A stretch of 52,043 nucleotides of DNA. It comes from an uncultured Rhodospirillaceae bacterium. GTDB taxonomy: Bacteria; Pseudomonadota; Alphaproteobacteria; RF32; CAG-239. The notes under the pieces are model-generated. The model did not search any database, was not told the DNA's origin, and was given only the letters and a program-made list of their open reading frames with translations. Location: positions 1-52,043 of the forward strand of contig ONLJ01000070.1 of NCBI GenBank assembly GCA_900318605.1, written 5' to 3'. The translations under genes and the position numbers were made by a program. Within the stretch, counting starts at the first letter, position 1. Each line of letters begins with the position of its first letter. Shown one piece after another: positions 1-41,345 of this stretch.

Positions 1-1052
1 GCAACATCCCAAGCATTTCCGTCATCAGCATAAGTAACATACTGCATGCCTTCGTCATCGGAACGACGCATTTTCAAACAAACCATACGTTTTCCGCTAC
101 GCATAACCATATCGCCGATACCCTCAACAATAATCAAACGATTATTCGGACCTTTAGTTCTAAAACCGACCGGAGTTTCAACACGCTCGACAATAAGTGT
201 TACAATCGGACGCTGAACCATATTAAGAGCCTTTTCGCCCAAATCAATATAAGTGAAAATATCATCACGCCAAACTCTCTCCGGCGCAATAATCACATCA
301 TCAGGATTAGGCACATAAATTTCGATATCAAAACGGAATTTTGACGGATCAAGCGGAATACTTTTGAGCCAATCTTCTTTCTGGAAACGACGTGTATAAG
401 TAGCATCAACCAGCTTTCCGCCCTGACCGGCAACCGCATTAACGTGATTATACGAACCGCCCGAACCTAATACACCCGGACCGCTACTGGGACTACCTCC
501 ATTATTGTTACCATCAACCACATCGATATCAATAATTGAGTTGGTCAGCCTTTCAGTTTGAACACCTTCACTCTTAACATAGAAAACATATTTATTACCC
601 GAGCGACCGAATAAAATAACGTTGGTATCAACACCGACATTAGCTCCGCTCTTCGGATAGAGCAAAACCGTATTCGGACTTGACGGACGACCGTCAAACG
701 AACTGCTGTCGCCGATATAAATATTTTCAATCAACTCCCATTCCGGAAAGTTAATCATCGTAATCATACCTTCACGCAAACGCACCGGAAGCACTAAATC
801 CGGTGTCCAATAATATTTGGAATAGGCAGGTTTGCTTTGACCTTCACCCAAGTTTTGCAACGGATCCTGCCAAGCGCTTTGAATCATTCCGAGTGAATTA
901 TTAAACCCGGCATAATTCAAGTTCATCGGCTGATAATTACCTTGAGATTGATCGGCGTATTGATCCAAACTGTTGGTAGTAACCTGAGCAAATACGTTTG
1001 ATGAAGCCAAAAGACTTAAGACCAAAATCATTTTATTCAAACTTATTCTCAT
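1..1052 (-). CDS. virB9: VirB9/TrbG/CagX-family outer-membrane T4SS core protein, N-terminal 350 codons (C-terminus off window)
   Basis: Not in the ORF track because it is open at the window edge. A minus-strand ATG (CAT at 1050-1052) opens a frame that stays open to base 1. My own translation gives MRISLNKMILVLSLLASSNVFA (Sec signal), then ...YYWTPDLVLPVRLREGMITMINFPEWELIENIYIGDSSSF...VWRDDIFTYIDLGEKALNMVQRPIV..., which fits the remembered VirB9/TrbG pattern. It begins 10 nt after the stop of the second virB8. Confidence 0.8.
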   Translation of the reverse strand, partial: MRISLNKMILVLSLLASSNVFAQVTTNSLDQYADQSQGNYQPMNLNYAGFNNSLGMIQSAWQDPLQNLGEGQSKPAYSKYYWTPDLVLPVRLREGMITMINFPEWELIENIYIGDSSSFDGRPSSPNTVLLYPKSGANVGVDTNVILFGRSGNKYVFYVKSEGVQTERLTNSIIDIDVVDGNNNGGSPSSGPGVLGSGGSYNHVNAVAGQGGKLVDATYTRRFQKEDWLKSIPLDPSKFRFDIEIYVPNPDDVIIAPERVWRDDIFTYIDLGEKALNMVQRPIVTLIVERVETPVGFRTKGPNNRLIIVEGIGDMVMRSGKRMVCLKMRRSDDEGMQYVTYADDGNAWDV

Positions 1053-1062
1053 TGTTTTATCC

Positions 1063-1806
1063 TTATTCCTTAATTTGTTTAGTGCTGTATGATACGATTT
1101 TAAATCCGACCGGATTTTTCAATCTTTCTTTAAACTGAACAGGGCGGCGTTGATATTGAACTTTCAGCGTTGACCTGTATTTAATTGTTTTCGGTTGGAA
1201 CGAAGTCGGCAAATAATAGTCAACCAAATATTCGACCTGCCAAATTCCGTTATCAACTTCATTAACCGTCAAAATTTTAACGCGGCTGGTTAAACCTTCC
1301 TGTTTCATTCTTTGCATCAGCTTACGGCCGGTATTTTCAATAAAGTCCTGATAGACCTTAGCCGAAGACATTTCCTGTAAATCACCGCCGTTCTGCCAAC
1401 GAGATTCCATTTCTTCTAAATCTGAAAGCAACGTGGTTCTGATTAAAATATACTTACTGACAAACGTTTCGGTAATAGCCTTTTGCGTTTCCATATTTCT
1501 GGTATAAGGAATCACGTTATAAACCTGCTCTTCCTTACTGGAAAGCGTTAAAAGATAAGGCTCAACCCGATAAAGCGGAAGCAAATTGGCAATCGTGAGA
1601 AGGAGAATAAAATTACAGCAGATACTGATGGCCGTAACAACGGCAAAAGCACGAGCTGTCCACAAATACCTTTTTTCACTGGCGTTTACCAAGACACTGT
1701 CATCGGACGAAACAGCCTGAACAACCGGTTGTGCGTCATAGTTTTCCTGCACCTGACCGGAAATCATTTTCTGTTCCGTATTATTTATGCCCAACTGTTC
1801 TGCCAT
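1063..1806 (-). CDS. virB8: VirB8-family bitopic inner-membrane T4SS protein, paralogue 2
   Basis: 247 aa with an N-terminal cytoplasmic tail and a single TM (AFAVVTAISICCNFILLLTIANLL). The periplasmic part contains FVSKYILIRTTLLSD..EMESRW...VYQDF, typical of the VirB8 NTF2-like domain. It is clearly paralogous to 2163-2912. Confidence 0.75.
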   Translation of the reverse strand: MAEQLGINNTEQKMISGQVQENYDAQPVVQAVSSDDSVLVNASEKRYLWTARAFAVVTAISICCNFILLLTIANLLPLYRVEPYLLTLSSKEEQVYNVIPYTRNMETQKAITETFVSKYILIRTTLLSDLEEMESRWQNGGDLQEMSSAKVYQDFIENTGRKLMQRMKQEGLTSRVKILTVNEVDNGIWQVEYLVDYYLPTSFQPKTIKYRSTLKVQYQRRPVQFKERLKNPVGFKIVSYSTKQIKE

Positions 1807-1822
1807 AAGCTTTACACCTTAA

Positions 1823-2011
1823 CTATATTGTTTCCAAAAACCAATCCGGAAGATTTTTAATTGTCTCAATTTGCATGCAAGCGCAAGGAGAGAGTTTAAG
1901 CTCGTTAATATCCTTACCCGGACCGACAGCTTCCGGTTCATAATAAGAACCAAACAGACTGCAAGCGGATAAAATTATCAGCAATCCTAAAATTATCAAT
2001 TTTTTATACAT
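1823..2011 (-). CDS. virB7: small lipoprotein, VirB7-like by size, lipobox and position
   Basis: 62 aa. Signal plus lipobox MYKKLIILGLLIILSAC|S. It sits between the two virB8 copies, just upstream of virB8/virB9. There is no further sequence motif to lean on. Confidence 0.55.
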   Translation of the reverse strand: MYKKLIILGLLIILSACSLFGSYYEPEAVGPGKDINELKLSPCACMQIETIKNLPDWFLETI

Positions 2012-2162: not shown

Positions 2163-2912
2163 TCACTCTCTGATTTTATCTTGACTATATTTCATTACCG
2201 TAAAACCCATTGGATTTATCAAACGCGGCGAAACAAAGCCTCTGTAAGATAAAAATCTCGGAGTAACCGAAGCACGATATTTGGCTTCTTTCAAGACCAG
2301 AGCGCCACCGCTTTCCTGAGTACGAGATAAATTAAACACCGTAAAATAAACAATCCAAACCGGACTGTTTTCGCCAATTCTGCCGATTTTATCAATTCTG
2401 ACCTCGCTGGAATAATCATTATCAAACATATTTTCCACTTTAGCCGCATTTTTACCGACAAACTCACGATACACATCAGGTGCCGACAAATAAGCTACTA
2501 TTCCTCCCGGTCCCCAACGGGTGCGCATTTCCCGCTCATCGTTAACCACCGTATTTCGCATAATAACATATTGTTTAACGAACATCTCGGTCATCTGCTT
2601 AAGCGATGACATTTTGGTATTCATCGGCTCATATCTGACCACTTCATCGGAAGAATTTTGACTGATTATCAACAGCGGCTCAACCAAAATTTCCGGTGCA
2701 AGCCGAAAAACAACCAGCGACGAACACAAGAAAAAGCTCAAAGAAATAACGGCGCACAGCACGACCAATCTTGAAAGCCATCTGAAATACACAAGCTTTG
2801 CCGAAGACGTTACGACTTCTTCATCGGTTATATAATGTTGTTGTATACTTTCTTCTTTACCGCCAGCTCCGGCAATTAAAAGTTTTTTATATCCGTCTCC
2901 CAAAACAGCCAA
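2163..2912 (-). CDS. virB8: VirB8-family bitopic inner-membrane T4SS protein, paralogue 1
   Basis: 249 aa with one TM (LVVLCAVISLSFFLCSSLVVF). It contains FVKQYVIMRNTVVND..EMRTRW...VYREF, aligning by eye with the other copy at roughly one third identity. Confidence 0.75.
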   Translation of the reverse strand: MAVLGDGYKKLLIAGAGGKEESIQQHYITDEEVVTSSAKLVYFRWLSRLVVLCAVISLSFFLCSSLVVFRLAPEILVEPLLIISQNSSDEVVRYEPMNTKMSSLKQMTEMFVKQYVIMRNTVVNDEREMRTRWGPGGIVAYLSAPDVYREFVGKNAAKVENMFDNDYSSEVRIDKIGRIGENSPVWIVYFTVFNLSRTQESGGALVLKEAKYRASVTPRFLSYRGFVSPRLINPMGFTVMKYSQDKIRE

Positions 2913-2932: not shown

Positions 2933-5900
2933 TTATTGAACATATACCGAGCAATAAACCGGCTCTTCATGCTCTATTTTTTCGTTTACGTATTTGTCGC
3001 CTCTTTCTCTTTCTTTATCGAGGATTGCTTTGTCGGTTTTTTCGGTCTTAATTTTTTCGCCGAGTTCTTCTATGCTTTCATCACCTGTTATCGAAACGAC
3101 TTCATCGGCATCCAATTCCAACAAAGCGATTTTTTTCAACAATTGTTCCCTACGCGATATCATTTCATCGAATGTCAGATTCATATTTCCGCCTTCAAGC
3201 AATTTTTTGGCCTCGCGCAGATTTGTTTCTTTACGAGCATTCAAAATATTTTCCGCTTGTTTATAATATGTTTCGTCGCTCAAATCAAATTTTTCGCGGT
3301 CAAAATCATATCCCATAGCCGCAAAAGATTTATACAACATATTTACGAAAACCAAATCATCGACATTACGGCTGTAAAGACTGTTTTTCATTTTATCTTT
3401 AGCTTCCAATGCCATTCTTTCAATATCCATTTTTTCAAGATAATCGGCGAACTGACCGCTCTGCGGTAAAACTCTGTTATACATATTGTACTGCGCACTG
3501 AACTTAATTTCTTCTCCCTCTTCAAATTTATCAAGATAATTTACCAAAAAACTCATTGCTGTCAGCAATTCTTTTCTGAAAGACAAGAATTTAATGTCTT
3601 TTTGTTTTGCCGACAATCCGAGCTCATCGGCAAGCGGCAATCCGTCAACACCGAAGACACCGACCTTAGCATTAGTATATTCCAAAATATTTCCGAGTTC
3701 GCTCGCGCCGATTGCCGAAACAGTATCTGCAGGATTGATACTGATGCGCTCAAATCCTTCCGAAGCACTGACATCATAATAACCGTTTTTATCTTCAGCA
3801 ACAGCCTGACACTGCGGCAAAGTTCCGTATTCTGCAGGAGCAACCGATAATTCGGCATATTGGAGATTTCCCTTTCCGTCAGGAACAACATCAATGATTT
3901 TCCCGGCACTCAAACACGGATAAATACCTGAACGACCGAGTGCATAGCTTTCTTTTTTATCATGATTTAAGAACTTTTCCAAATCCAAATCTTTTTGCAC
4001 AAACGGACGATATGACAATACCAGCTTCCAAATTTCCGGCAATTCCAATCCGCTTTCGAGCAAGCTGTTTTCAACCAGCAAAACATTAGCACCGTTTTTA
4101 GTTGCCTCAGTGATTTTGGAACTGATAATCTCATTATTTTCTCCGGCTTTAAAATCCGATGAGGCATAATAATCGATATAATTCAAATCAGCCAAACCGA
4201 ACGAAAAAATTTCCCTGAGCGGAGCCGACGAAAAATCGACCGGAGCCTTCGGTGCCGCCAAATCTTTTTCCTGAGCGATAAGTCCGACAAAATACCGACT
4301 GTCCGGCTGATAACAGCTGACTTTATCGCAAACATTCGAGAACAAACCGGTCAAACTTTCGGCATATTTCACTACAAGCGCTGCTGCGGCATCGTCTAAA
4401 CCAAGCTCGGCAATCACATCATTAACATCAGGTTCTGTAATTTTCTTGAGCATATCGGTATGAATTTGCACAACCTTCGGATTATTTTGAGCATAATACA
4501 GACTGTCGGCATTATTATTTTTCATCTTTGACAACTTCTCCAGAGCTTCTTCAGCCTTTTTGGCAGCATATTCTCTGAAATAGTCAATTAACTCCTCAGC
4601 CTCTCCCAATACCGTAAGCTTAGTCACGGCAGAAAGCACTTGTTGCTGAATTTCACTTAGAGTATTATCTTCAACAATATCTTCTAAACCTGATTTATAT
4701 TTTTGCTCGGCATTATAATACGCCAAAACCTTATCCGCCCTGACTTCATTGATTTCGGCCTCAATTTGCTTTATTTTCTCCAAGATAATCTTTTTGGAAT
4801 CGTTTACATTGCGCAAACTGTCGCCGGCATTATTTCTGGCGATTTCCGCATTTTGCTCTTTCTGCGACTGTTCTTTAATATTACGATTATACTTATCGGT
4901 CAAAGTTTCATGCGGATTATCCGGATTTTGAAATTGTTTATCAAAATCTGCTCCGAAACCGGCCTGCTCATTATAGTCTTCGGAATAGTTAATTACCTCA
5001 TTTTGCTTTTCGATTTCTGCATGCAAATCAGCCTGTTTTATATTAACATCTTCGAGTTCTTTATAAGCGGCAACTCTTTTCTTCTCGAGTTCTGCCAATT
5101 TTTTATTATGCTCGGCGGTAATATTTTCCAAATCAACTTTTTCCTGAGCCAAAATTGCTTCGATTTGCTCAACTTTAGAATCACGATCATCGCCGATTGC
5201 TTCAATAAGCCCGTTAATTTCCTCGGCAACTTCTTTTCTGATAGCTTCAACACTCTTGGTTATAATACCGTCGGCATTTCTCTCCGCCTCATATTCGAAA
5301 GTTTCGTTTATTTTCAGACCAAGCCCGAGAATTTCCTTAAATAATGAAGCATTAAGGAAATAATTTTTGATATTTTCATATTTATCGTCGATGTACTGAT
5401 TATAAAAATTCATCTGGTCATTCCAAAGCGGGAACGGCTTAGTATTAACTCCGAACTTACTTTTACCGGAAACACCGTTTACATCTTTATTGATTTCCTC
5501 GTTGGCAAGCGCACCGACACTCGTATTAAGCCGACCGAGAACTCGCATTTTTTCCAAATACTTATCGGCAAGGATTTCTCCGTTTTCAATTTGATATTTA
5601 TAGTCCTTTGCCGCCCGATAATCGGTATTCGGTCCGACTTCTTCATCAGGCTCCGGTTCCGAAGTCGAAGCTTTAATAATATAATTTTCCTCTTTCGGTT
5701 CAAAATCCGACAGTTCATCTTTGGCATTAAGATACATATTTATCAACCAACCCGACATTCCGCCGACTTCATTGTATGCACTTGATGAAAGCTTATAACA
5801 CTTTTGCGCGGCATTATCAGGACAAGCCACATCATAAATACCCTCACTTTCGCTGTTATCACTGAAACTTTTTGCCGGACTATAAGCACAGACATATCCT

Positions 5901-7099
5901 TCTTTATCGTCCACCATACAGTTATCAAGCCAAACTTTCTGACTGTTATCATACCTTTGTGCCAGATAGTTCAGCACGCAAGTCTGTGATTTTTGCAGAT
6001 TATCCGATGCTTTAAGGTGCATTTTTTCCATACTGTGATAATCATCAAAAACCCTTTTCATCTCCGGAAGTTGTTGTTTCAAGTTATGGCTTTCGAACGC
6101 TGCCGATAATTTATCTTCGACCTCATGAAAGACCGCCATTGCTTTTATATCGGCTTCTTTTCCGTCAAGAGGTGTTTTCAAATCAATTTGATTATTTTCG
6201 CTAAAATCAAACTTTGAATCCGGAATTTCCTCTACAATCAACTCTTCATCTTCGATTTCCTGAGAAGCATAAATATTGCTTTCGGTCAAATAACCGCTGA
6301 CTTTGGAAGTTTTTTGTTTTTTACCCGAATACGGTTTAGGTTTAACGCCCTGTCCCAAAGTTCTTACAGCCTCATATTGAGCGCGCATAGCCATCAGATA
6401 TTCGTTTCTCTTCATTATTTCATCATAGATATCGGCAACCAATACGGCATTACGACGATAACACATTTCATCTTCGCTTCCGTCATCTTTCTGACAATTA
6501 AACTCCTCCATATCTGCCGCCTTACAACCTTCGGCATCATTCAGAATTATGCACTTTTCTATAACATCGAGTTGCGCCAACATAACCGTCAGCTCTTTAT
6601 CCATTTCTCTGGCTGTAATATAAAGTTCCAAAGTAGTATCTTCAACAAACTGTTCTCTTTTTTCCTTATACGAAGCCTGAACTTCCTCATCATCGGACGG
6701 GATATAAAGAAAATACTTTTTGAATGTTTCTTTTACCAACGCCACATCATCAAGTCTGGTTTTGGTTTGTTTTATCATACGGGCATAAGAAACCGGCTTT
6801 TCATCACTGTCTTTTTTCTTCCATTTATCTTTATATTTGCTCAAAAACTCCTCTCCCTTACCTCTGGCATATTTTTCGAAATGTGCCTTAGTTTCATCTA
6901 AGACCCCTTTTATATTTTTGTTTTCGACAACTTCTTTCATAGCTTTGATAGCGCTTGCTTTTGCCGCAAGTTGCTCAGAGGTACATTCTGCACAAAATTG
7001 TGCAGCCACACTGCTGAGCGGAGTTAAATCCGGCCCGATAGCATAAGATTTGAACGAAAATAAAATTGAACAAACACAAAACAACCAAAACTTTTTCAT
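2933..7099 (-). CDS. giant (1388 aa) secreted coiled-coil-rich, Cys-pair-containing protein of unknown function, T4SS-associated by position
   Basis: An uninterrupted 4.2-kb ORF. An RBS GGAG lies upstream of the ATG at 7099. Sec signal MKKFWLFCVCSILFSFKSYA|IG, with no other hydrophobic helix. Long K/E/Q-rich heptad-like stretches alternate with globular parts carrying paired cysteines (FCAEC, EKC..EGC..FNC..EMC, DNC..YVC, VAC..QKC, NVCDKVSC). I recognise no family motif. Confidence 0.8.
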   Translation of the reverse strand: MKKFWLFCVCSILFSFKSYAIGPDLTPLSSVAAQFCAECTSEQLAAKASAIKAMKEVVENKNIKGVLDETKAHFEKYARGKGEEFLSKYKDKWKKKDSDEKPVSYARMIKQTKTRLDDVALVKETFKKYFLYIPSDDEEVQASYKEKREQFVEDTTLELYITAREMDKELTVMLAQLDVIEKCIILNDAEGCKAADMEEFNCQKDDGSEDEMCYRRNAVLVADIYDEIMKRNEYLMAMRAQYEAVRTLGQGVKPKPYSGKKQKTSKVSGYLTESNIYASQEIEDEELIVEEIPDSKFDFSENNQIDLKTPLDGKEADIKAMAVFHEVEDKLSAAFESHNLKQQLPEMKRVFDDYHSMEKMHLKASDNLQKSQTCVLNYLAQRYDNSQKVWLDNCMVDDKEGYVCAYSPAKSFSDNSESEGIYDVACPDNAAQKCYKLSSSAYNEVGGMSGWLINMYLNAKDELSDFEPKEENYIIKASTSEPEPDEEVGPNTDYRAAKDYKYQIENGEILADKYLEKMRVLGRLNTSVGALANEEINKDVNGVSGKSKFGVNTKPFPLWNDQMNFYNQYIDDKYENIKNYFLNASLFKEILGLGLKINETFEYEAERNADGIITKSVEAIRKEVAEEINGLIEAIGDDRDSKVEQIEAILAQEKVDLENITAEHNKKLAELEKKRVAAYKELEDVNIKQADLHAEIEKQNEVINYSEDYNEQAGFGADFDKQFQNPDNPHETLTDKYNRNIKEQSQKEQNAEIARNNAGDSLRNVNDSKKIILEKIKQIEAEINEVRADKVLAYYNAEQKYKSGLEDIVEDNTLSEIQQQVLSAVTKLTVLGEAEELIDYFREYAAKKAEEALEKLSKMKNNNADSLYYAQNNPKVVQIHTDMLKKITEPDVNDVIAELGLDDAAAALVVKYAESLTGLFSNVCDKVSCYQPDSRYFVGLIAQEKDLAAPKAPVDFSSAPLREIFSFGLADLNYIDYYASSDFKAGENNEIISSKITEATKNGANVLLVENSLLESGLELPEIWKLVLSYRPFVQKDLDLEKFLNHDKKESYALGRSGIYPCLSAGKIIDVVPDGKGNLQYAELSVAPAEYGTLPQCQAVAEDKNGYYDVSASEGFERISINPADTVSAIGASELGNILEYTNAKVGVFGVDGLPLADELGLSAKQKDIKFLSFRKELLTAMSFLVNYLDKFEEGEEIKFSAQYNMYNRVLPQSGQFADYLEKMDIERMALEAKDKMKNSLYSRNVDDLVFVNMLYKSFAAMGYDFDREKFDLSDETYYKQAENILNARKETNLREAKKLLEGGNMNLTFDEMISRREQLLKKIALLELDADEVVSITGDESIEELGEKIKTEKTDKAILDKERERGDKYVNEKIEHEEPVYCSVYVQ

Positions 7100-7111
7100 T
7101 TTTCATCTCCT

Positions 7112-8320
7112 TCAAATTCTATGCCACAAATCCTTAACTTTATCCTTATTTTGCTCAAGGAACTCTTTTCCTTTTTTAAGCAAATCGTTTTTTTTCAATT
7201 CATAAGAATCAAAATCAAATTCCGTTACCGGCTTTTTATAATCATAAAGATGATATTTATTGTTCCAAGAAGTCATATCTTGCGAAGTTTTCAATCTGAT
7301 TTCGGCAAGCAATGCTTCGGTAAAGCGCGCCGCCGCTTTAGCATTTTCGATGATTATTGCGATATTGGCATTTTTCAGCGCATAATTTCCCTCAACATCT
7401 GTTGCCATCTCCGTATATTGTGTAACTTGCTCTTCCAAATCGGCGGAAGCGGCCGTACCGACAACCGCAACTTCCATAGCTTTTTGCAAAGCATCATAAT
7501 AGGCTCTTTGGCGGTTTTTCTTAATTCTTGCCATATTTTCGCTTGAAGTTTCTTCTGATTCTTTTAAGAATAGTGCCTCTATCTCGGTTTGATAAATCGA
7601 CTGATTTTCTTTGGAATCGGTTTCGTCATCAAACAAATCGGCATTTTCCGCCTGTTCCTGAAGTCCTGCTTTAACAGCCGTATCATCAGCTTCCGGCTTC
7701 AGTTTTTCAACTTCTTTAGCGGCTTTTTTTTCCTTATCTTCCAATCCCTGATAGGTTTCATCATTTATCGGCTGGTCCAGAATATGTTGTTTCTGCGCCT
7801 CCAAATCGGCAATTTCATCGACCAGTTTTTTATGATCGTCTTCACTGAGATTACTGCTTTGAACTTTGGCTCTCAATTCGGTCAAACGCTCATCAATTTG
7901 CTTTATTTTTTCCATCTGAGCATCTTTTTGTGCCGCGATATAATCATCTTTTTGCGCCGTTGCCGCCGCCAATTTATTTTCGGCTTTTTTCAATTCCTGA
8001 CGCTTTTGTTTGGCTTTGGCAACTTCCTGCTCTATTTTTTCATCAACATAGCTTCTGGCATATTTTCCGGCTTTATCCGCGGCATATTTTTTAGCCCTCT
8101 CTGCAAGCTCACCGCTTGTAGCCAAACGGATAATCTTATTTGCCTCGGTAACCACTCCGTCAACAGTTTCCTGCGCCTTATTGGCATAATCTTCGATTAC
8201 CGGCAGATTTGCTTTAACCGCTCTGATAGAACTACTGAGCTTTACTACGGCAAAAGCAGGCGTAAACAACATAGCTTGCGCCGCGATAATAAGGATTAAC
8301 ATTTTACCAAACTTTGTCAT
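7112..8320 (-). CDS. secreted coiled-coil protein (402 aa), unknown function
   Basis: Start revised from the track (8401) to the ATG at 8320 (CAT 8318-8320), which has an AGGGGA RBS 7 nt upstream. This removes a 62-nt overlap with the upstream gene. Sec signal MTKFGKMLILIIAAQAMLFTPAFA|VV. The body is K/E/A-rich and helical. Confidence 0.7.
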   Translation of the reverse strand: MTKFGKMLILIIAAQAMLFTPAFAVVKLSSSIRAVKANLPVIEDYANKAQETVDGVVTEANKIIRLATSGELAERAKKYAADKAGKYARSYVDEKIEQEVAKAKQKRQELKKAENKLAAATAQKDDYIAAQKDAQMEKIKQIDERLTELRAKVQSSNLSEDDHKKLVDEIADLEAQKQHILDQPINDETYQGLEDKEKKAAKEVEKLKPEADDTAVKAGLQEQAENADLFDDETDSKENQSIYQTEIEALFLKESEETSSENMARIKKNRQRAYYDALQKAMEVAVVGTAASADLEEQVTQYTEMATDVEGNYALKNANIAIIIENAKAAARFTEALLAEIRLKTSQDMTSWNNKYHLYDYKKPVTEFDFDSYELKKNDLLKKGKEFLEQNKDKVKDLWHRI

Positions 8321-8339
8321 ATCAATTCCCCTTATTAAA

Positions 8340-9035
8340 TCATTCGCCATCCTTGTTTTCGTCTTTTTCATCCTCTGCTTCATCAGGCTTAACTGCGGCA
8401 AGCTGTTTCATTGAAGTCTGAGCCATCAAGCTTGCATCTTGTTGAAGCATTGATATCCACCGATTATTAGCCCGTTGTATAGTCTCGGTAAACACCGTCT
8501 GCACACCGGCAACATTATTAAAATCCTCAATTTTTTCCTTCTTTTCGTTATCAAGTTGGAAGCGACGCACCAATCCTCTGGCATACATTGAAGAAACATT
8601 TTCAATCATCAAATCATTGGTCATTTCTTCCAGCTGTTTATTTTTCTCGACATCATCGCTGCTGCGCTTTGAAACCGTAAATATTTTTTTCGCCGCATCT
8701 CTCATCAACGGGTTAGAACCGACACCGTTAATAATACTGGTAAATTCACTGGGAACTTTGTCGTCCAGATTCCATCCGTCAACAGCCAATTTCAGTGCAT
8801 CTTTTGCATTACTTTTCAATTCATCGACATTAAAATTCGCTGCTTTATCCGAAACCAAATTTTGCGATTTTTCCTGAAGCAAGGACATAGCGTTTTCGTT
8901 GATTTTCCCTATTCCGTCTTTTTGCGCAAGAGTAACCAATTCCACCATATAAGTTGATATATCGAAATCGGCATACGCAAAAGAAGGCGATATCATCAAC
9001 CCCGCAACGATAAAATAATTCCAAAATTTTCTCAT
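8340..9035 (-). CDS. secreted helical protein (231 aa); a VirB5/TrbJ-like role is possible from size and position only
   Basis: Sec signal MRKFWNYFIVAGLMISPSFAYA|DF and a predicted all-helical, hydrophilic body. The size matches VirB5-type minor pilins, but I cannot see a diagnostic motif. Confidence 0.6.
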   Translation of the reverse strand: MRKFWNYFIVAGLMISPSFAYADFDISTYMVELVTLAQKDGIGKINENAMSLLQEKSQNLVSDKAANFNVDELKSNAKDALKLAVDGWNLDDKVPSEFTSIINGVGSNPLMRDAAKKIFTVSKRSSDDVEKNKQLEEMTNDLMIENVSSMYARGLVRRFQLDNEKKEKIEDFNNVAGVQTVFTETIQRANNRWISMLQQDASLMAQTSMKQLAAVKPDEAEDEKDENKDGE

Positions 9036-9050
9036 CGCACTTCTCCGAAT

Positions 9051-10130
9051 TTACTTATCAATTTCCTCACACTCGCCGTTTGAACAAGAAATCATAATAC
9101 TGTCATCGGAAGCGTGAGCAAAAGTACCGTCCGGACAATTTCTGCGTTCGCAATTCAAAACAGTTGCTCCGTTTTTTTCTCCGTAATTACAATATTCACA
9201 TGTTCTCGCATCAATAAGCTGCCAACCTATTCCGTTGACATTATTAAAACTTATGTCGCCCGAAACATTCTGCGGCGAAGAATTTTCGCTCACACTAACC
9301 TTTACACACTCTTTATTTTTGCATTTCCAACCGACATTATTATCATTAGGATCGGCATATTCCCCGTCAGGACATACTTCATTTCGACATTCCGGTTTAT
9401 TATCTTCTCTCTTAACACAGAATCTGCACTGACCGTCTCCGACAAATTGCCATTTATCCGTAAGCACATATTCTTCCGCAACGATTGTATTAACCACTTC
9501 AGCTTCGGCACCACCGGTTGAACCGGCCGAACTTTCCGAATTTTCCGCTGCTTGATTATCTCTATCCTGAGCATCTTGCAACTCACTGATTGAGGCAACT
9601 TCGGTCAAAACATCTTTACTGATATTTTCGATATTGGAAATAGCCAGATATTTAAGCTGTTCTACATACAAGTCTCTGAAACTGTTAACTACCGAAGTCA
9701 ACACTGCATTGGTATTGATTGCCGCTCCGTCAACATCATTTACTGTTTTAGCATTAGCATTTACTTCGGCAACTTCTTCGCTTTGTTTAAGATAATATCC
9801 GGCAACCGCTGCACCTTTAGCCACAGCAAGTGACATCATTTCCTGCAGTTCATCGGCTTTGATTTCGTTTAAGTCTTTCAAACCTTCTCTTGCAATTTCG
9901 GCATTACTGCTTCGACGTTTTAGTGCCAAAGTATTGATACAATTCCGCAGTTTCTGCGGGTCTTTAACCATATCTTCCGCCGAAGTTTTGCAGTGTGTAG
10001 CCATTGTATTCGGAATCAGCTGATAACTTTCCTTATAAACACCGGAAAAAACCTCCTCTTCAGCCTTAAGCGAGTCGCAAACAAAAGCCGAAACAACTAA
10101 CATCGCAAAAATTTTCATCAACTTTTTCAT
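9051..10130 (-). CDS. secreted protein (359 aa) with a helical N-half and a duplicated 6-Cys C-terminal module
   Basis: Sec signal MKKLMKIFAMLVVSAFVCDSLKA|EE. The C-terminal part contains two copies of W-Q-x-[VI]-x-D-x(2,3)-C-x-[FY]-C-x(8,10)-C-x(3)-CPDG-x-[YF]-A-x(8,10)-C-x-N-x-EC. Confidence 0.7.
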   Translation of the reverse strand: MKKLMKIFAMLVVSAFVCDSLKAEEEVFSGVYKESYQLIPNTMATHCKTSAEDMVKDPQKLRNCINTLALKRRSSNAEIAREGLKDLNEIKADELQEMMSLAVAKGAAVAGYYLKQSEEVAEVNANAKTVNDVDGAAINTNAVLTSVVNSFRDLYVEQLKYLAISNIENISKDVLTEVASISELQDAQDRDNQAAENSESSAGSTGGAEAEVVNTIVAEEYVLTDKWQFVGDGQCRFCVKREDNKPECRNEVCPDGEYADPNDNNVGWKCKNKECVKVSVSENSSPQNVSGDISFNNVNGIGWQLIDARTCEYCNYGEKNGATVLNCERRNCPDGTFAHASDDSIMISCSNGECEEIDK

Positions 10131-10166
10131 AACCGCAAACTCCTTAATTTTTAAAACTTGTTACCT

Positions 10167-10688
10167 TTATTTGCCCCTAATGCCAATTTTTTCATCGATT
10201 TGAACATTCTTTTTATTTACCCAATTATAGGCCTTATTAACTTTTGCTTTGATATTTTCTTCGGCCTTTTCACGATTTTCATCAATTTTTTTACGAGCGG
10301 AACTTATTCCTTCTTTAAGTTTTTCAAATTTGTTTTTAGCTGTTTTCTGGGATTCTTCGCCTGCTTCTTTTTTGGCTTTTTCCTTTTTTTCCTGCTCAAG
10401 CTTATACTTATCAAAGCCTATTTTTTTAGCATCTTTAACAAACTCACCGATATTTCCGCTGGCCACATTTTTTAACATACCGACCACTCCCCAAAGCGAA
10501 TTTTCTTTTATCCTTGAAACTGTTTGATTGACTCGTTCTTTTACCATAGATACAGTCGAGACTTTTGTTTCAACCTGAGTTAAATTCTCGCTGATACTGT
10601 TGGTAGGCAACGGATAAGACCACGCATTATCCGAGCAGATGAACACAGCAAAAACCGCAATAAATGAAATCAAGCTAAATTTTCTCAT
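10167..10688 (-). CDS. small secreted Lys/Glu-rich protein (173 aa), unknown function
   Basis: GGAGG RBS upstream of the ATG at 10688. Sec signal MRKFSLISFIAVFAVFICSDNAWS|YP. The C-terminal half is KEKAKKEAGEESQKTAKNKFEKLKE-type charged helix. Confidence 0.65.
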   Translation of the reverse strand: MRKFSLISFIAVFAVFICSDNAWSYPLPTNSISENLTQVETKVSTVSMVKERVNQTVSRIKENSLWGVVGMLKNVASGNIGEFVKDAKKIGFDKYKLEQEKKEKAKKEAGEESQKTAKNKFEKLKEGISSARKKIDENREKAEENIKAKVNKAYNWVNKKNVQIDEKIGIRGK

Positions 10689-10707: not shown

Positions 10708-10736
10708 ATTATATGCTATCACATAAGTTCGTTTAA
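10708..10736 (-). promoter_or_regulatory. possible internal sigma70-like promoter ahead of the five-ORF block
   Basis: On the minus strand: TTAAAC, then 17 nt, then TATAAT (rc of 10731-10736 and 10708-10713). It lies in the 68-nt gap after virB4 and just upstream of the GGAGG RBS. Confidence 0.3.
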
Positions 10737-10756
10737 AAAAAGACTTTTTTAAAAAC

Positions 10757-13186
10757 CTAGGCAATATTTAAATATTTTGTAACAAATCCGTCTTCGCCAT
10801 ATTCCTTTATCAGTTGCTGAACGAGCAAAACATTCTTTCTTCCGGAGTTGTAAATCCTCAAATATTTACCCAAACCGCCCAAATTAACGTCTAAAATAAC
10901 CGATTCACCGGTAACAGGACGTGAAAGCAAAATAGCATACGGAAAATCGCGATAACTTTTACCGAAAATAAAGTCGAGTTCACTCTGAGTTAAGTTCCAG
11001 TTGGCATAATCTTCAACTTGAGCTTGCGGATTTCTAAAGAAAATAACCGTCTGACATTGACCGCGAATAACCTCGCCGACACCAAGTTTATCAACGATAT
11101 TCGGTTGTTGGAAAGCACACAGATAGGCCTGACGTTTTTTACGTCCTTCTTGCAAACCTTGAATAAAATAATCTCTAAACATCGGGTGCTTCAACATCGG
11201 CGCCGTTTCATCAATCATAATAAGAGATGGCACACCGGTTTCTCCGGTTTCTGACTGAATACGATGCATAATATAGCTGATAACAGCCGGCGCCAAATTT
11301 TCATCTTCGAAAATATGGGTAAAATCGAAGGCCATAAATCTGCGGCTTTTCAAATCCAAACTGTCATCTTGCGCATTAAAAATCGCACCGTACTGGTCAG
11401 GATTAACCCAGCGGAAAAGTTCGCGACGCATATTACCGGTCGGTGAAAAACAGCTCTTATAAAGATTTTTAAGCAAACGCTCTTCCGGCCTCAAATAATC
11501 AAATGCCGTAGTAACAGCGCGCGAAACCTCACGCTCTGCCAAAGCATCATCAACCATTGTGATTGATTTCAGCCAACGGCGCAAAAACGCACGATTTTCC
11601 GGAGTATTATTACAGTCAAACGGATTTAAGGAAACATTCTTTTCATCACCGTCAAAACCGACATAAGCACCTTTAATCGCACGCGTAAAAATTTCAGCAC
11701 CCAAATGGCGGTCGAAGAAAAACACTCTCAAATCGCCGTGACGCATAGCCTGTCCGGCTAAAAAGGTCAGCAATGTTGTTTTACCTTGACCGGTAGGACC
11801 GACAATACAACAGTGAGCCACTGCCGATTCTTCGGAAGAAACGTGAAATTGAAAACGGTAAGCCGAACCCGACATGGTTCTGAATACGGTAATTGCCCCG
11901 TTACCCCAGTCACTTTTACTAAAACCTTCTGCCGGCTTATCCATCGTTACCGCCATTGCAATCACGCGTGAAAGATAGCGATAAGTTCTCGGATAAGTAT
12001 CATAAGTCGGGAATTGGGTAAAGAACACAGCCTGAGCCACCCAGCCCTCACGCACCGGAGTAACGCCGAACGAACGACAGATTCTTTGAACTTCCGATTC
12101 GCCGAAATTTATCTCGTCCATAGTTTCGGCTTTCAAAATAATCGTCATTGAATATTCGCATAAGGACTGATAATTATTGTCGCTATCATCAATCGCCGCC
12201 AAAGCCTGAGAATATTGTTCAACCACCCCCGGCGAGAAACTGGTCATCGTTGCCATTCTTTGTTGTTGCATCAAAAGAAGTCTTGCCTGCGAACGGAATA
12301 TCGGACGAATATTATGCAAAATAATCATCTCGCAATCGATAGCATTAAGCGAATATATCATACTTTCATCCATAGTATCGCCGGTAGCTCTGATACCGAT
12401 TGCAATCTCATAAAGCTCTTTTTTTCCGGAGAAAAATTTGATAATACCCTCTTCGTCAGTAAAATGAATATGGTCGGCAGTCAACATTTCGCAAAGTCTT
12501 ACACCCTCGGCATTACGAACTTTTGGGAGTGGTTTTGAAATCGGACTGCATATTTGCGAAAACAAATAAAAAGGACTATCTTCGGCAGAACTTTCTTCAG
12601 TTTCATACATCGGACTGACATTGTATTCTCCAAGCGTTGAAATCAAACTTTGCGAAGCATAGTTCAAATCTTTCAAGGCATCTTTCCTATCGACAACCGA
12701 CATAACGACATAGTGCTTATTGGAGTAAACACGGCTCATATTACTGAACCAAACCTGAGAAATCGTATCAAGAAGGGCATTATTAAAATCCCGTTTTTCT
12801 TTTTCGAGCGAAATTCTGTCGCGTACGGTAATCACTCGACAAACCACCTGCATATTAGCCATATCGTCAATCCACGATTTTCTGGCTTCCATCATTGAAT
12901 AAACTTTTTCAGCAGTGGCGGAAGACAAATCCACACCTTCCAACCTAAAGACACGTGCATAAGAATTATTGCTACATTGGATTGTAACACCGTCGGACAT
13001 CAATTTCGCAAACGGCAGAAAATCTGAAACGCGTGATTCTCTAGGTTGAGGCAGAACCCAGCTACCAAATCTGGTGGCTAGCAAAACCGCAAAAGCCGCT
13101 GCCGAAACAATACCGATTAAAGCAATAATAACCTCAATATTACTGAGGCCACGCACAAAGATACTGAAAAAATCCTGCTCACTCAT
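10757..13186 (-). CDS. virB4: VirB4/TrbE-family T4SS ATPase
   Basis: 809 aa. N-terminal TM (VIIALIGIVSAAAFAVLLA), Walker A CCIVGPTGQGKTTLL, Walker B-like PSLIMIDETAPML. A 4-nt ATGA overlap couples it to virB3. Confidence 0.9.
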   Translation of the reverse strand: MSEQDFFSIFVRGLSNIEVIIALIGIVSAAAFAVLLATRFGSWVLPQPRESRVSDFLPFAKLMSDGVTIQCSNNSYARVFRLEGVDLSSATAEKVYSMMEARKSWIDDMANMQVVCRVITVRDRISLEKEKRDFNNALLDTISQVWFSNMSRVYSNKHYVVMSVVDRKDALKDLNYASQSLISTLGEYNVSPMYETEESSAEDSPFYLFSQICSPISKPLPKVRNAEGVRLCEMLTADHIHFTDEEGIIKFFSGKKELYEIAIGIRATGDTMDESMIYSLNAIDCEMIILHNIRPIFRSQARLLLMQQQRMATMTSFSPGVVEQYSQALAAIDDSDNNYQSLCEYSMTIILKAETMDEINFGESEVQRICRSFGVTPVREGWVAQAVFFTQFPTYDTYPRTYRYLSRVIAMAVTMDKPAEGFSKSDWGNGAITVFRTMSGSAYRFQFHVSSEESAVAHCCIVGPTGQGKTTLLTFLAGQAMRHGDLRVFFFDRHLGAEIFTRAIKGAYVGFDGDEKNVSLNPFDCNNTPENRAFLRRWLKSITMVDDALAEREVSRAVTTAFDYLRPEERLLKNLYKSCFSPTGNMRRELFRWVNPDQYGAIFNAQDDSLDLKSRRFMAFDFTHIFEDENLAPAVISYIMHRIQSETGETGVPSLIMIDETAPMLKHPMFRDYFIQGLQEGRKKRQAYLCAFQQPNIVDKLGVGEVIRGQCQTVIFFRNPQAQVEDYANWNLTQSELDFIFGKSYRDFPYAILLSRPVTGESVILDVNLGGLGKYLRIYNSGRKNVLLVQQLIKEYGEDGFVTKYLNIA

Positions 13187-13473
13187 GGCTCAAATTTGTT
13201 TCCTTTCACCTCATAGAGGTTAGTTGTCTTCTTATACGTTTGCCCAAATGCCTGCATCATAGTCGATAAATGCGGCTCTCTTTGACCGGCAACAACCAAT
13301 GCTCCGTGAGCCAGAATAATACTCACAACAAAAGCCAAAGGGTTCATATCGGCAACTCCTATTCCCATAAACAACATCGGGAACTGGATACCTAAATTTA
13401 TTATGGCAGGTACGAACGGAGCAAATAAAAACTTAGGAGGCTGAGCTACGGCTTTTAAAATATAATCCCTCAT
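13183..13473 (-). CDS. virB3: VirB3/TrbD-family small inner-membrane T4SS protein
   Basis: 96 aa with two hydrophobic segments (FAPFVPAIINLGIQFPMLFMGIGV and LAFVVSIILAHGALVVAG) followed by REPHL. It lies immediately upstream of virB4 and overlaps it. Confidence 0.8.
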   Translation of the reverse strand: MRDYILKAVAQPPKFLFAPFVPAIINLGIQFPMLFMGIGVADMNPLAFVVSIILAHGALVVAGQREPHLSTMMQAFGQTYKKTTNLYEVKGNKFEP

Positions 13474-13916
13474 CTCAATCTCCCAAGTTTAACAGACAAT
13501 TTTGCGACAACATCGTCATCGCGAGATGATTGTAACGCAATATTGGTTAATTGATGGTAAAAATATTCGTCATGTTTTAAAATTAATTCATTTTTATCGG
13601 CAACAAAGCGCTTCACAAACCGCTCTGTTTCTTTCAAAATATCTTGTCTTTGCAGCTCTTGCGAATTACCGGAAGCAATTTTTTCGATTTCTTCTTGTCC
13701 AAGTTTTTTTGCAAGTTCGGGCTTTTTTTCATAAAGTTCTTCAATTTTTTTAAGTTTTTTTAATATGATATCGTTGGAATTATTGAGCATATAAAGATTA
13801 GTCGTTTGTTCATTGGCCGTAGCCTTGGCATCGCCTTTATTCTCGACCTCTAAATACGCAAAAGCATGAGATATAAAAGAACAAAAAACAAAAGAAACGA
13901 CTAATAATAACCTCAT
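13470..13916 (-). CDS. secreted helical protein (148 aa) between virB2 and virB3, unknown function
   Basis: Start revised to the ATG at 13916 (CAT 13914-13916) with a GAGG RBS. Sec signal MRLLLVVSFVFCSFISHAFA|YL. A 4-nt overlap joins it to the virB3 start. Confidence 0.6.
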   Translation of the reverse strand: MRLLLVVSFVFCSFISHAFAYLEVENKGDAKATANEQTTNLYMLNNSNDIILKKLKKIEELYEKKPELAKKLGQEEIEKIASGNSQELQRQDILKETERFVKRFVADKNELILKHDEYFYHQLTNIALQSSRDDDVVAKLSVKLGRLR

Positions 13917-13926: not shown

Positions 13927-14301
13927 CTAATGTCCACTACTAAACGTATCGACAACACCCGAAATAAAGTCTGTTGACCCGCTGGTATCGAAACCGCTTA
14001 TCGGAGCAATTTCTCCCGGTTTTGCCCGCACCCATGTAATTGCTGCTGTCATTGACGTTAAGAAAAAAGTGCTGATAGCAATATATGCAAAAGTTTTCCA
14101 ACTGATTTTATTAAACATTGCCGCTACCGCAAAAGCAATCAAGCCCAAACCGGCTATAATATAGCCAACCTTTTGGAGGTTATTGCCCAAATTTCCGGCA
14201 CGCAAAGCGAGTTCATCAAAAACATCTCCGGCATAGGCATCTCCGGCAAAAACCAACGCTCCGAGTAGGAGTAAAAATTTTAAGATTCCGTACTTTTTCA
14301 T
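13927..14301 (-). CDS. virB2: VirB2/TrbC-family pilin paralogue c (124 aa)
   Basis: Start revised to the ATG at 14301 (CAT 14299-14301) with an AAGGAG RBS. Signal ends GDAYA|GDVFDE. Two hydrophobic helices are separated by FNKISWKTF, followed by a hydrophilic Gly/Ser-rich tail. Confidence 0.7.
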   Translation of the reverse strand: MKKYGILKFLLLLGALVFAGDAYAGDVFDELALRAGNLGNNLQKVGYIIAGLGLIAFAVAAMFNKISWKTFAYIAISTFFLTSMTAAITWVRAKPGEIAPISGFDTSGSTDFISGVVDTFSSGH

Positions 14302-14320
14302 CTTTTTTCTCCTTTCACGC

Positions 14321-14716
14321 TCACTTTGTCGGGACAATTTTATCAAGAAGTTCAGATATTCCGAAACCGCTGTATCCGTCCATACCTTCGCCGGCGAACA
14401 TATCAGCACCCTGGTTAGGATCACCTGAAGCCGCCAAAGATATAATCAATACACCGAGCATAATTGCCGCCAACCATTTCCAGTTAAAATTACCGAACAT
14501 ACCGGCAATACAAACACAAGCCAATCCGATTGTTGCCGCCGGATAGATAATTTTCACGATTCCCTGAAAGATATTGTTTCCGGCTGTTTGTAAAGATTCA
14601 AAAACCGCGTATGCGTCCGTTGTATAGAAAAATAGTGAAACAACCAAGAAAAGTGTGCACTTATTCTCTTTTACGAAACTATACAACATTTTCCCTATTT
14701 TTTTATACAACATCAC
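14321..14716 (-). CDS. virB2: VirB2/TrbC-family pilin paralogue b (131 aa)
   Basis: GGGAGG RBS. Signal ends TDAYA|VFESL. Two hydrophobic helices are separated by FGNFNWKWL, followed by a divergent hydrophilic tail. Confidence 0.7.
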   Translation of the reverse strand: MMLYKKIGKMLYSFVKENKCTLFLVVSLFFYTTDAYAVFESLQTAGNNIFQGIVKIIYPAATIGLACVCIAGMFGNFNWKWLAAIMLGVLIISLAASGDPNQGADMFAGEGMDGYSGFGISELLDKIVPTK

Positions 14717-14733
14717 TGCCTCCCTTGGGTTTC

Positions 14734-14758
14734 AAGGAGCGGAGAGCTTCCGCTCCTT
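14734..14758 (-). terminator. GC-rich intercistronic stem-loop after the first virB2 (attenuator or mRNA stabiliser candidate)
   Basis: AAGGAGCGGA (14734-14743), a 5-nt loop, then TCCGCTCCTT (14749-14758), giving a perfect 10-bp stem. There is no strong T-run, so partial termination or a processing barrier is more likely than a full stop. Confidence 0.45.
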
Positions 14759-14788
14759 ATTAAATTCCCTGTTAAAATACTTTATGTA

Positions 14789-15166
14789 TTAGTCATAATC
14801 ACCGATTACACCGCCTGCGGCACCAGGTCCGGAACCTAAAGTATCATTAAATTTACTTCCCGAAGCACCTTCGGTATTGGCAGCATAGTTAACGATAGCA
14901 CCGGCAGCGGCAACAACTGCCAAACCGAATGCCAATGCTGCAAACCACGGCCATTTTACCTTACCGAAAATAGCTTGGAATGCCAAAGCAACCAAACCGA
15001 AACCACCGATAACGAAGATTATCATTTTGGCATTTCGGAAAAGTTCAACCAGTTTTTCACGAGCTGATTCAAAAACCGAAGCGGCATAAGAACCATCAAT
15101 CATTACGAGCGTAAACAAAAGTGTCATCGCCATAATGCTTAAGATATTATTTTTAAAGAATTTCAT
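14789..15166 (-). CDS. virB2: VirB2/TrbC-family pilin paralogue a (125 aa), first gene of the T4SS operon
   Basis: Start revised from 15502 to the ATG at 15166 (CAT 15164-15166) with an AGGAG RBS. Signal ends DGSYA|ASVFES. Helices are separated by FGKVKWPWF, with a Gly-rich tail. The track's N-terminal extension is a translation of the upstream tandem repeat. Confidence 0.75.
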   Translation of the reverse strand: MKFFKNNILSIMAMTLLFTLVMIDGSYAASVFESAREKLVELFRNAKMIIFVIGGFGLVALAFQAIFGKVKWPWFAALAFGLAVVAAAGAIVNYAANTEGASGSKFNDTLGSGPGAAGGVIGDYD

Positions 15167-15379
15167 TTTGTTTCTCCTAATAAATTTGACCTTACACTTA
15201 TATATTATCGCATTTTTTATAAAACTTCCAGCTTTTTGTGTAGTTGTTAACATATTGTTTTTACAACAAAAAAAGCCTTGTAACAAAAAATTCATAATTA
15301 TATTCGTGCAACATACGAACTTTTTTCTATCACTAATTGGTAAAAAAATTGATAACGTTATATGGAGATTTTCACACAT

Positions 15380-15460
15380 GTCATTCCGAGGAGCTTTTTT
15401 TATATTGTCATTCCGAGGAGTTTTTTTTATATTGTCATTCCGAGGAGCTTTTTTTATATT
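15380..15460. repeat. 3 x 27-bp perfect-phase tandem repeat (GTCATTCCGAGGAG + C/T + T7-8 + ATATT)
   Basis: The units are 15380-15406, 15407-15433 and 15434-15460. Units 1 and 3 are identical and unit 2 differs by C->T. Each unit starts with the left arm of the REP-like element that follows. Confidence 0.9.
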
Positions 15461-15498
15461 GTCATTCCGAGGAGCCGCAAGGCGACGTCGGAATCTCC
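15461..15498. repeat. REP/MITE-like palindromic element, copy 4 of the family in this window
   Basis: GTCATTCCGAGGAG-CCGCAAGGC-GACGTCGGAATCTCC. It has ATTCC/GGAAT-type terminal pairing and an inner GCC..GGC pairing, the same architecture as the elements at 25890-26060. Confidence 0.8.
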
Positions 15499-15677
15499 TC
15501 AAACAAGCGACTCATTCAAAAAAAATCATCTGTTATTTATGACCTACATGCCACGAAAAACAAAAAAATTTCGCCATTAACTCTATTTTAACATAATGAG
15601 ATGTATCCTTGCCGCAAGGGAAAGGGCATTTTTATGTCTGTTTCTTGGATTTCAGGCACTTTGAAACGAGGATTCTT

Positions 15678-17192: not shown

Positions 17193-17233
17193 AACGGTAT
17201 TGAGAATTTAACCTGTAGCAATAGGAAAAGATT

Positions 17234-19625: not shown

Positions 19626-19642
19626 AAAATGGGAGAAAACCA

Positions 19643-22451: not shown

Positions 22452-22462
22452 AGTAAGATACC

Positions 22463-24172: not shown

Positions 24173-24184
24173 AAGGAATGAACG

Positions 24185-25312: not shown

Positions 25313-25313
25313 T

Positions 25314-41282: not shown

Positions 41283-41345
41283 AACCAAACCTTAAAATTT
41301 TTACGATAAAATCCGCTCAATATTTGTGTCCGGAAAGGTTTGAAT

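Follow-up and report, generated by a model that had tools for sequence, protein, structure and literature searches.

Five exported proteins of no known family lie between virB4 and virB8 in a type IV secretion operon of uncultured gut Alphaproteobacteria

The window analysed here is the whole of contig ONLJ01000070.1 (52,043 nucleotides, or nt; assembly GCA_900318605.1, from an uncultured Rhodospirillaceae bacterium), which carries a type IV secretion system (T4SS) operon on its reverse strand. Between virB4, on the upstream side, and a virB8 gene (paralogue a), on the downstream side, lie five open reading frames (ORFs), which we will term A to E. ORF A (10167..10688; reverse strand, as for all five) encodes 173 amino acids (aa) with a signal peptide and the mature N-terminus YPLPTNSI. 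ORF B (9051..10130; 359 aa) encodes a signal peptide, a helical domain, an acidic linker, and two Cys-rich beta modules. ORF C (8340..9035; 231 aa) has a signal peptide and the mature N-terminus DFDISTY. ORF D (7112..8320) encodes 402 aa from its ATG, with a longest possible frame that reaches 8401, and its mature N-terminus is VVKLSSS. ORF E (2933..7099; 1388 aa) has a signal peptide and the mature N-terminus IGPDLTPL...C..C. The gaps from virB4 through A, B, C, D, and E to virB8 are 68, 36, 15, 19, 12, and 20 nt. This module is real, conserved, and uncharacterised, and we did not find a description of such a T4SS in the literature on RF32, Rs-D84, or CAG-239 gut Alphaproteobacteria.

All five genes look like genes for exported soluble proteins. 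A GGAG-type Shine-Dalgarno site precedes each ATG, and the GC content of the block is that of its flanks. Each protein begins with a Sec-type signal (basic n-region, hydrophobic core, small residue at −1); the residue at −3 is small in four of the five signal peptides and is Leu in B. A Kyte-Doolittle scan (19-residue window, threshold 1.6) found no hydrophobic segment past the N-terminus in any of them, and the same scan found three to six segments in each of four canonical VirB6 proteins, which served as the positive control. An initial annotation, made from the DNA alone, had described five tightly packed same-strand ORFs between virB4 and the first virB8, each with a Sec signal and none with a second hydrophobic helix, and all of this holds: the coordinates agree, the gaps are 12–68 nt, and the N-termini that it quoted are exact. 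Its description of the proteins as K/E-rich and heptad-like is right for composition (27–35% of residues are charged), but the proteins are not only coiled coil, as B has beta modules and E has an alpha/beta domain. Within the 68-nt gap between virB4 and ORF A (10708-10737, reverse strand) there is also a sigma-70-like sequence, TTTAAA-18-TATAAT (10/12 positions), a consensus match that might be an internal promoter for the five-gene block.

The window ends inside virB9, and relatives show that the operon runs on past position 1. Clustering of all called proteins in the recovered loci gave the full gene order: two or three virB2 genes, a gene for a protein of ~148 aa that we call F11, virB3, virB4, A, B, C, D, E, virB8, a 62-aa VirB7-like lipoprotein, a second virB8, virB9, a repeat protein of ~1600 aa that we call F10, virB10 (~1400 aa), and virB11. 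So, the initial estimate that the block makes up about half of the locus is correct for the part of the operon that is visible in the window, but the block is only about a quarter of the full operon. The full order also settles whether a virB6 gene lies immediately past the window, which had been raised as a possibility: the next genes are virB9, the bitopic repeat protein, virB10, and virB11, and this candidate explanation was rejected.

Other assemblies also contain the locus, as found by an exact look-up and by searches for homologues. When one genome per species was scanned with an alignment of family E, 27 loci emerged. Most of these come from human gut and rumen and are labelled as uncultured Alphaproteobacteria, whereas the names on a few bins differ and are probably wrong. 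A metagenome scan yielded 80 more loci. The block is present, in the same order, in every related locus that we examined (27 from species-level metagenome-assembled genomes, 80 from metagenomes, and three remote loci), so it is conserved in more than 100 loci. Because it is syntenic in all of these, the block is a fixed part of a widespread T4SS subtype, and not an insertion. A profile of family E searched against 1.84 billion representative proteins matched 253 clusters (50% identity) with E-values below 1e-3, and 155 of these were below 1e-30. Thus, the term "lineage-specific" in the initial annotation understates the spread of these proteins. Most of the 148 newly listed matches to family E are ~1200–1850 aa long (the shorter entries are probably fragments), and 143 of the 148 have no hydrophobic segment past residue 40.

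The three remote loci contain, as far as their contigs reach, virB3, virB4, four to seven slot proteins, E, virB8, the 62-aa protein, virB8, and virB9. Their slot proteins have signal peptides and no Pfam matches, and in the one remote locus that was scanned, none of them is polytopic. The number of slot genes varies, from four in a distant clade in which A is fused to B (hhalign probability of 99.9% for the B part and 77% for the A part) to as many as eight in a remote locus. In this distant clade, the third VirB2-like pilin core, with two transmembrane (TM) helices, is also embedded in unusual proteins of 690–940 aa (L025:278-2626, L028:206-3010, L029:11-2845, L030:21-2651, and L031:129-2198), which are extended at the N-terminus by K/E/A-rich sequence and at the C-terminus by a long stretch that contains Cys.

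The synteny makes it extremely improbable that the five are unrelated cargo or are not genes at all, for which the lack of database matches is the only argument. An inserted cargo would not be expected in the same order in every related locus, and the composition of the block, its ribosome-binding sites, and reading frames that stay intact down to 24% identity all point to real genes. The initial annotation had named a simple insertion as an outcome that would undo its interpretation, and the comparison of loci excludes it.

The operon has no visible gene for VirB6, the polytopic partner of VirB5. The defining feature of VirB6 homologues is a set of four to six helices in the membrane (PMC12857230). 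No VirB6-like ORF with at least three TM-like segments is present in the 52-kb window, where the only real gene of this kind encodes PilR/T2SSF, and no real gene with at least four such segments lies inside the operon across 2.2 Mb of related loci. (The matches with at least four segments in these 2.2 Mb are YidC, Bax1-I, other neighbouring genes, and antisense shadows.) In relatives with the whole operon in view, neither VirB6 nor VirD4 is encoded in the operon or within ~10 kb on either side. The five proteins themselves have neither about four to six TM helices nor a match to the TrbL/VirB6 profile, even at E-value ≤ 1, and six remote homologues of E do not match this profile either. The earlier statement that the locus lacks a VirB6-like polytopic protein is therefore correct for the window and for the related operons.

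One way to account for the missing gene is that the five are VirB6 paralogues that have lost their membrane domains. The initial annotation had drawn a comparison with the rvh loci of Rickettsiales, with four to five VirB6 paralogues after virB4, and this agrees with the literature, in which the rvh system of Rickettsia has five VirB6 paralogues (RvhB6) and no VirB5 (PMC2653234). The two systems also share a duplicated virB8, a VirB7 lipoprotein of ~60 aa, several genes after virB3-virB4, and the lack of a recognisable VirB5 (PMC2653234). In contrast to A to E, the RvhB6a-e proteins are hydrophobic and contain a VirB6 domain by their published description, and rvh includes VirD4 and is scattered in islets (PMC2653234). 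The system described here has TM-free slot proteins and a contiguous operon from virB2 to virB11 that ends beside engB and yidC. Given the lack of any TM helix or TrbL/VirB6 match, and given that the number of slot genes is not fixed at five and that their sizes do not correspond to those in rvh, we consider descent from VirB6 to be very improbable.

The conservative expectation is that VirB6 is encoded elsewhere in the genome, and a replacement of VirB6 by the block, as offered in the initial annotation, is more than the operon and its flanks of ~10 kb can show. A bolder idea is that this T4SS subtype has no polytopic VirB6 at all. The periplasmic stalk or protochannel and the base of the pilus would then be made of A to E, anchored by their conserved N-termini. 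To our knowledge, every characterised T4SS makes these structures from a VirB6 pentamer, and we find the idea quite unlikely. If it were true, no T4SS architecture that lacks a VirB6-type translocon component would have come before this one, and if VirB6 is absent from the whole genome, then the current model of assembly would need an alternative.

The sequences of the five families give few clues to their origin. None of A to E has a Pfam or NCBIfam match or a match to a sequence in the PDB, and none of the six remote homologues of E has a Pfam domain. Specifically, the Pfam and NCBIfam searches found no SLT or lysozyme-like (VirB1) domain in A to E, and no toxin, enzyme (ADP-ribosyltransferase), AB5 B-subunit, or adhesin domain in A to E or in the remote homologues of E. 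Profile searches of the PDB with families A, B, D, and E did not return any T4SS protein; family D gave only coiled-coil noise, including weak matches to IpaD (E-values of 0.12–0.3). The lack of any match to VirB5, VirB1, or VirB6/TrbL agrees with the initial annotation, which had recognised none of the five by motif.

Family A is typically ~270 aa, so the 173-aa protein in the window is a shortened member. B has a conserved helical domain (residues ~25–198) that is followed by Cys-rich beta modules at 224–279 and 302–358, and its relatives have one or two such modules. Members of family C range from 230 to 590 aa. D is helical and K/E-rich, with a conserved C-terminal region. E has a Cys-containing helical N-terminal half (predicted with low confidence), a helical hairpin, an alpha/beta domain, and a helical tail. 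The AlphaFold2 model of B (29 homologues; predicted local distance difference test score, pLDDT, of 65.6) has helices of 50 and 37 residues and beta modules with pLDDT values of ~80–88. The model of residues 21–1200 of E (12 homologues; pLDDT of 59.9) is poorly defined in the N-terminal half, and its confident region comprises the hairpin, with ~80 residues per arm, and the alpha/beta domain. The structural check that the initial annotation had suggested, which was run for B and E, identified no known family: Foldseek gave no match in the PDB below an E-value of 0.01 for either model, the best value for E was 0.019, and for B there was no match below 0.1. The top non-significant matches for both are long-helix proteins, including the ClyA-family toxins AhlB, SmhB, MakA, and AhlC (E-values of 0.04–1 for the ClyA family).

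We also compared the families to each other. Most of the links from an all-versus-all hhalign comparison are weak (probability of 68% for A-D, 88% for C-D, and 58–68% for D-E) and arise in part from signal peptides and coiled coil. The exceptions are families C and C2 (97–98%) and the fusion of A with B. The suggestion that the five are paralogues is thus weakly supported, by probabilities of 50–88% that are partly driven by the N-termini, and we do not claim it.

The five proteins evolve much faster than the core of the same machine. Between the window and locus L005, VirB4 is 97% identical, VirB3 is 93%, the VirB8 proteins are 84–91%, VirB7 is 89%, and the pilins are 78–84%, versus 33% for A, 55% for B, 49% for C, 50% for D, and 55% for E. 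Similarly, between the window and locus L004, VirB4 is 90% identical, versus 26–35% for the five. The lengths of the slot proteins and the number of Cys-rich modules in B differ even between close relatives. This combination of fast evolution and variable length or module number fits exposure to a target.

The rate contrast bears on a doubtful but serious alternative, which is that the five form a periplasmic scaffold of an enlarged core complex, similar to CagM/Cag3/CagT in the Cag system of Helicobacter or to the extra core proteins of Dot/Icm. They would then build or brace a very large machine and would not be tip proteins exposed at the surface. The whole system is indeed oversized: VirB9 is 534–580 aa (~550) across relatives, the repeat protein is 1150–1730 aa, and VirB10 is 1400–1750 aa. 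The five are always co-encoded with the machine, the hairpin in the model of E could be long enough to span periplasmic distances, and we found no adhesin or toxin domain in the five. Cag (CagL/CagI/CagH, CagM/Cag3, CagX, and CagY) is likewise an expanded machine, with a VirB9 of ~550 aa, a giant repeat-rich VirB10, and a number of exported proteins that are specific to it and have no known fold. However, our PDB and Pfam searches gave no sequence relation between A to E and the Cag-specific proteins, and both VirB6 (as CagW) and VirD4 (as Cag-beta) are present in Cag. The core scaffold parts of the system in the window (VirB4, VirB7, and VirB8) evolve slowly in the very species pair (window and L005) in which the five are 33–55% identical, and the five vary in length and module number between close relatives. 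A scaffold role also leaves the VirB5-like N-terminal motif, discussed below, unexplained.

A second alternative that would account for the fast evolution is that the five are dedicated substrates, such as the subunits of a toxin or adhesin, that are exported by Sec and then released by the T4SS without a coupling protein. The precedent is the export of the pertussis toxin subunits S1-S5 via Ptl. As in that case, all five proteins have Sec signals and no VirD4 is encoded in or beside the operon (within ~10 kb) in those relatives with the whole operon visible, and systems without VirD4, such as Ptl, take the two-step route (PMC12857230). Rapid divergence would also be natural for secreted proteins that face a host. 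Unlike pertussis toxin, though, none of the five has a recognisable toxin, enzyme, or AB5 domain, and neither do the remote homologues of E. Also, the genes are embedded between virB4 and virB8 and are not at the end of the operon, and such substrates are not known to be conserved at the extreme N-terminus. The logic of the slot and its N-terminal motifs persist in remote systems that have quite different slot proteins, which fits structural parts better than substrates. We consider this explanation unlikely.

What the families do have in common is that each opens its mature chain with a conserved motif. In the alignments of A, Bd, C, D, and E, the first ten residues after the signal peptide are among the top 6–15% of windows by conservation. 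Family A begins with FPLPTxD(M/I)xRLAQ, and the fused A-B clade begins with WPT(L/V/F)DI (for example, WPTLDISS). Family C begins with D(L/F/I)D (consensus DLDPTSLIQ), family D begins with (I/V)SKLDFF (consensus ISKLDFF), and family E begins with (I/F)(W/F)PD(Y/F)TPLxPxAPQxCxxC. Distant homologues of E have P-T-(F/I/L)-D at the same place.

Some of these motifs resemble the mature N-termini of annotated VirB5 proteins from plasmids, which include GIPVAID, QGVPVVDTQNIAQ, ELPVIDGANLVN, QFVVSDP, and QVPVLDS. The comparison set GIPVAID, QGVPVVD, ELPVIDG, QFVVSDP, and QVPVLDS yields the pattern xΦPVxD (x-hydrophobic-P/V-V-x-D), which leads into a helix. Family A (FPLPTMDMGRLAQ) and the fused A-B proteins fit this pattern, at the level of the motif only, and the N-terminal motifs of C, D, and the window's E differ from it. 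Family A shares further features with VirB5: it has a Sec signal, it is soluble, and its gene lies directly after virB4, which is where virB5 lies in the canonical operons of pTi, IncN, IncX4, and Lichenicola plasmids. More broadly, the block resembles the VirB5/TrbJ family (TraC of pKM101, TrwJ of R388, CagL; PF07996) in the position after virB4, the Sec signals, and the soluble and helical character, and family A resembles it in size (~270 aa) and in the mature hydrophobic-Pro-x-hydrophobic-Asp motif before a helix. In contrast to VirB5/TrbJ, there are five families here, not one, with proteins of up to 1388 aa, no profile or fold match, and no VirB6 partner in the operon.

Another piece of evidence comes from the closest annotated VirB4 (38% identity), which belongs to a conjugative T4SS on plasmid pMVF16-3 of Microvirga sp. 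VF16 (L032; 671-686 kb). This plasmid has the same VirB4 subtype and the same order of virB2, virB3, virB4, slot proteins, a small lipoprotein, virB8, a virB9 for ~550 aa, virB10, and virB11. Its slot encodes a protein of 273 aa with a full-length but sub-threshold match to PF07996 (E-value 0.17), a protein of 228 aa with three TM segments that is possibly a small VirB6, and a signal-peptide protein of 428 aa. Unlike the system in the window, it has a relaxase, VirD4, a single VirB8, and this weakly VirB5-like protein, and it has no giant that resembles E. (In its annotation, VirB4 and the three slot proteins are each called hypothetical.) As Microvirga sp. VF16 has been cultured, pMVF16-3 could be a tractable model for the subtype.

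Because the N-terminus of family A mimics the VirB5 motif and because a weak match to VirB5 occupies the slot in Microvirga, one or more of the five may be divergent equivalents of VirB5. For the same reasons, the claim in the initial annotation that the block replaces VirB5 is doubtful; together with the points above, its interpretation as a whole is partly supported. The agreement with VirB5 is limited to position, export, size, and N-terminal motif, as read from the sequences, and does not establish membership in the family.

With these results in mind, we tentatively propose that A to E are VirB5-equivalent subunits of a pilus tip, stalk, or adhesin; we see this as the most likely of the explanations considered here, if somewhat short of an even chance. 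T4SSs are thought to share a VirB5-VirB6 stalk, which is both the site of pilus growth and the path of the substrate. The structure of the R388 system shows VirB5 as a pentamer on top of a pentamer of VirB6, with the pilus growing between them, and the assembled VirB5 projects its N-terminal part in the manner of the pore-former ClyA, perhaps to meet the recipient membrane (PMC9259494). By our proposal, A to E would be integral, Sec-exported, soluble subunits of a distinct chromosomal T4SS in uncultured gut and rumen Alphaproteobacteria and in more distant relatives. After cleavage of the signal peptides, the conserved mature N-termini would dock into the machine or the pilus. The fast-evolving distal parts, that is, the Cys-rich beta modules of B and the long helical hairpin and alpha/beta head of E, would face the target and might contact it as adhesins.

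Several observations weigh against assigning the five to a VirB5-like role. First, PF07996 is not matched by A to E (E-value ≤ 1) or by 13 members of family A (E-value ≤ 5). Second, when A, Bd, B, C, C2, D, E, and F11 were compared by hhalign with an alignment of six VirB5 sequences, no probability exceeded 1%. Third, VirB5 is among the T4SS proteins that the PDB profile searches did not return, and Foldseek with the models of B and E, which are the only two models and are of only moderate confidence, did not find TraC, TrwJ, or CagL; all of the matches have E-values above 0.01 and are of a generic long-helix type. Fourth, fast evolution is likewise expected of secreted substrates. Finally, in the known systems VirB5 needs the VirB6 pentamer as its base (PMC9259494), and no VirB6 is seen in this operon. 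On the first three points, we note that the VirB5 of the F plasmid (TraH) is undetectable by sequence or fold except for an N-terminal helix-loop-helix (bioRxiv 10.64898/2026.07.31.741991, 2026 preprint).

With its three pilin paralogues and its lack of VirD4, the operon has more in common with Trw of Bartonella, a system geared to pili and adhesion, than with a machine for conjugation. VirD4 is also missing from Ptl, ComB, and Trw. In Trw, VirB2 and VirB5 occur in multiple copies, the presumed products are adhesive pili that vary, and the proposed role is adhesion, not translocation (PMC12857230). Both Trw and the system in the window lack VirD4 and have several VirB2 paralogues and several variable exported proteins, which are associated with the pilus in Trw and putatively so here. 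However, Trw retains a recognisable VirB5 (TrwJ) and VirB6 (TrwI), and its variable genes are tandem duplicates, whereas the operon in the window lacks VirB6 and its five families differ from one another.

The subtype is common in Alphaproteobacteria of the human gut and rumen that have never been cultured, with more than 100 loci in which the slot holds only exported, fast-evolving proteins of no known family. If these are tip or stalk parts, they would add to the known diversity of VirB5-like proteins, a group whose members are already difficult to recognise (as in the case of the F-plasmid TraH), and would point to the molecules that these commensals use to touch host or neighbouring cells. 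Family E, with its 253 clusters, is large enough for covariation analysis and multimer modelling.

The rest of the operon in the window is likewise on the reverse strand. Upstream of the block are virB4 (10757..13186; 809 aa with an N-terminal hydrophobic helix; PF03135, E-value 2.5e-17), virB3 (13183..13473; 96 aa; PF05101, E-value 0.0019, with conserved synteny), and the gene for F11 (13470..13916). F11, between virB2 and virB3, is a 148-aa signal-peptide protein with a conserved AGEQNTNLYRLN motif; it is found in 18 loci and has no family match. Three VirB2/TrbC-like pilin paralogues follow at 14789-15166, 14321-14716, and 13927-14301 (together spanning 13927..15166), and PF04956 is found in their orthologues. 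Downstream of the block are virB8 paralogue a (2163..2912; 249 aa; PF04335, E-value 3.8e-11), the VirB7-like lipoprotein (1823..2011; 62 aa; lipobox LSAC), virB8 paralogue b (1063..1806; 247 aa; PF04335, E-value 3.2e-22), and the 5' part of virB9 (1..1052), a CagX-family gene for 534 aa in full that is cut by the end of the contig.

Beyond the window, in relatives, the bitopic F10 is encoded between virB9 and virB10 (for example, L002:17816-22615 and L004:17583-22637). Its N-terminus (THSDRYVRKTNRIIL and a TM segment) is nearly invariant and is followed by dozens of ~17-residue 'DxNGNVIGxV' repeats. VirB10 has beta-flower repeats and a TrbI domain. The last gene of the operon is virB11 (324 aa), and in the one clade of loci examined for this, the genes beyond it are housekeeping genes on the opposite strand (engB, yidC, and Bax1-I). 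The window itself encodes a VirB11/T2SSE-type ATPase of 326 aa on the forward strand (33895-34875), between nucleotidyl-transferase and TPR genes, which is either a relocated virB11 or a paralogue.

An R64-type type IVb (thin) pilus cluster lies divergent from the T4SS operon (15609-25853, forward strand). Its genes encode a 527-aa signal-peptide protein, a TcpQ-like protein, a secretin, PilO, a second 527-aa protein, a PilQ-type ATPase, and PilR/T2SSF. The first gene of the cluster also adjoins the T4SS operon on the upstream side in L002 and L004, so the pairing of the two seems to be conserved. Between the two divergent operons (15379-15475) is a 27-bp tandem repeat with 3.6 copies that are 97% identical. 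Each unit contains a promoter-like TTGTCA-17-TATATT on the forward strand, and by its sequence the repeat could be a regulatory array. Elsewhere on the forward strand, the window encodes two giant envelope proteins: an AsmA-family protein of 1391 aa (28782-32957) and a protein of 1593 aa with a BigA beta-sandwich domain (41340-46121).

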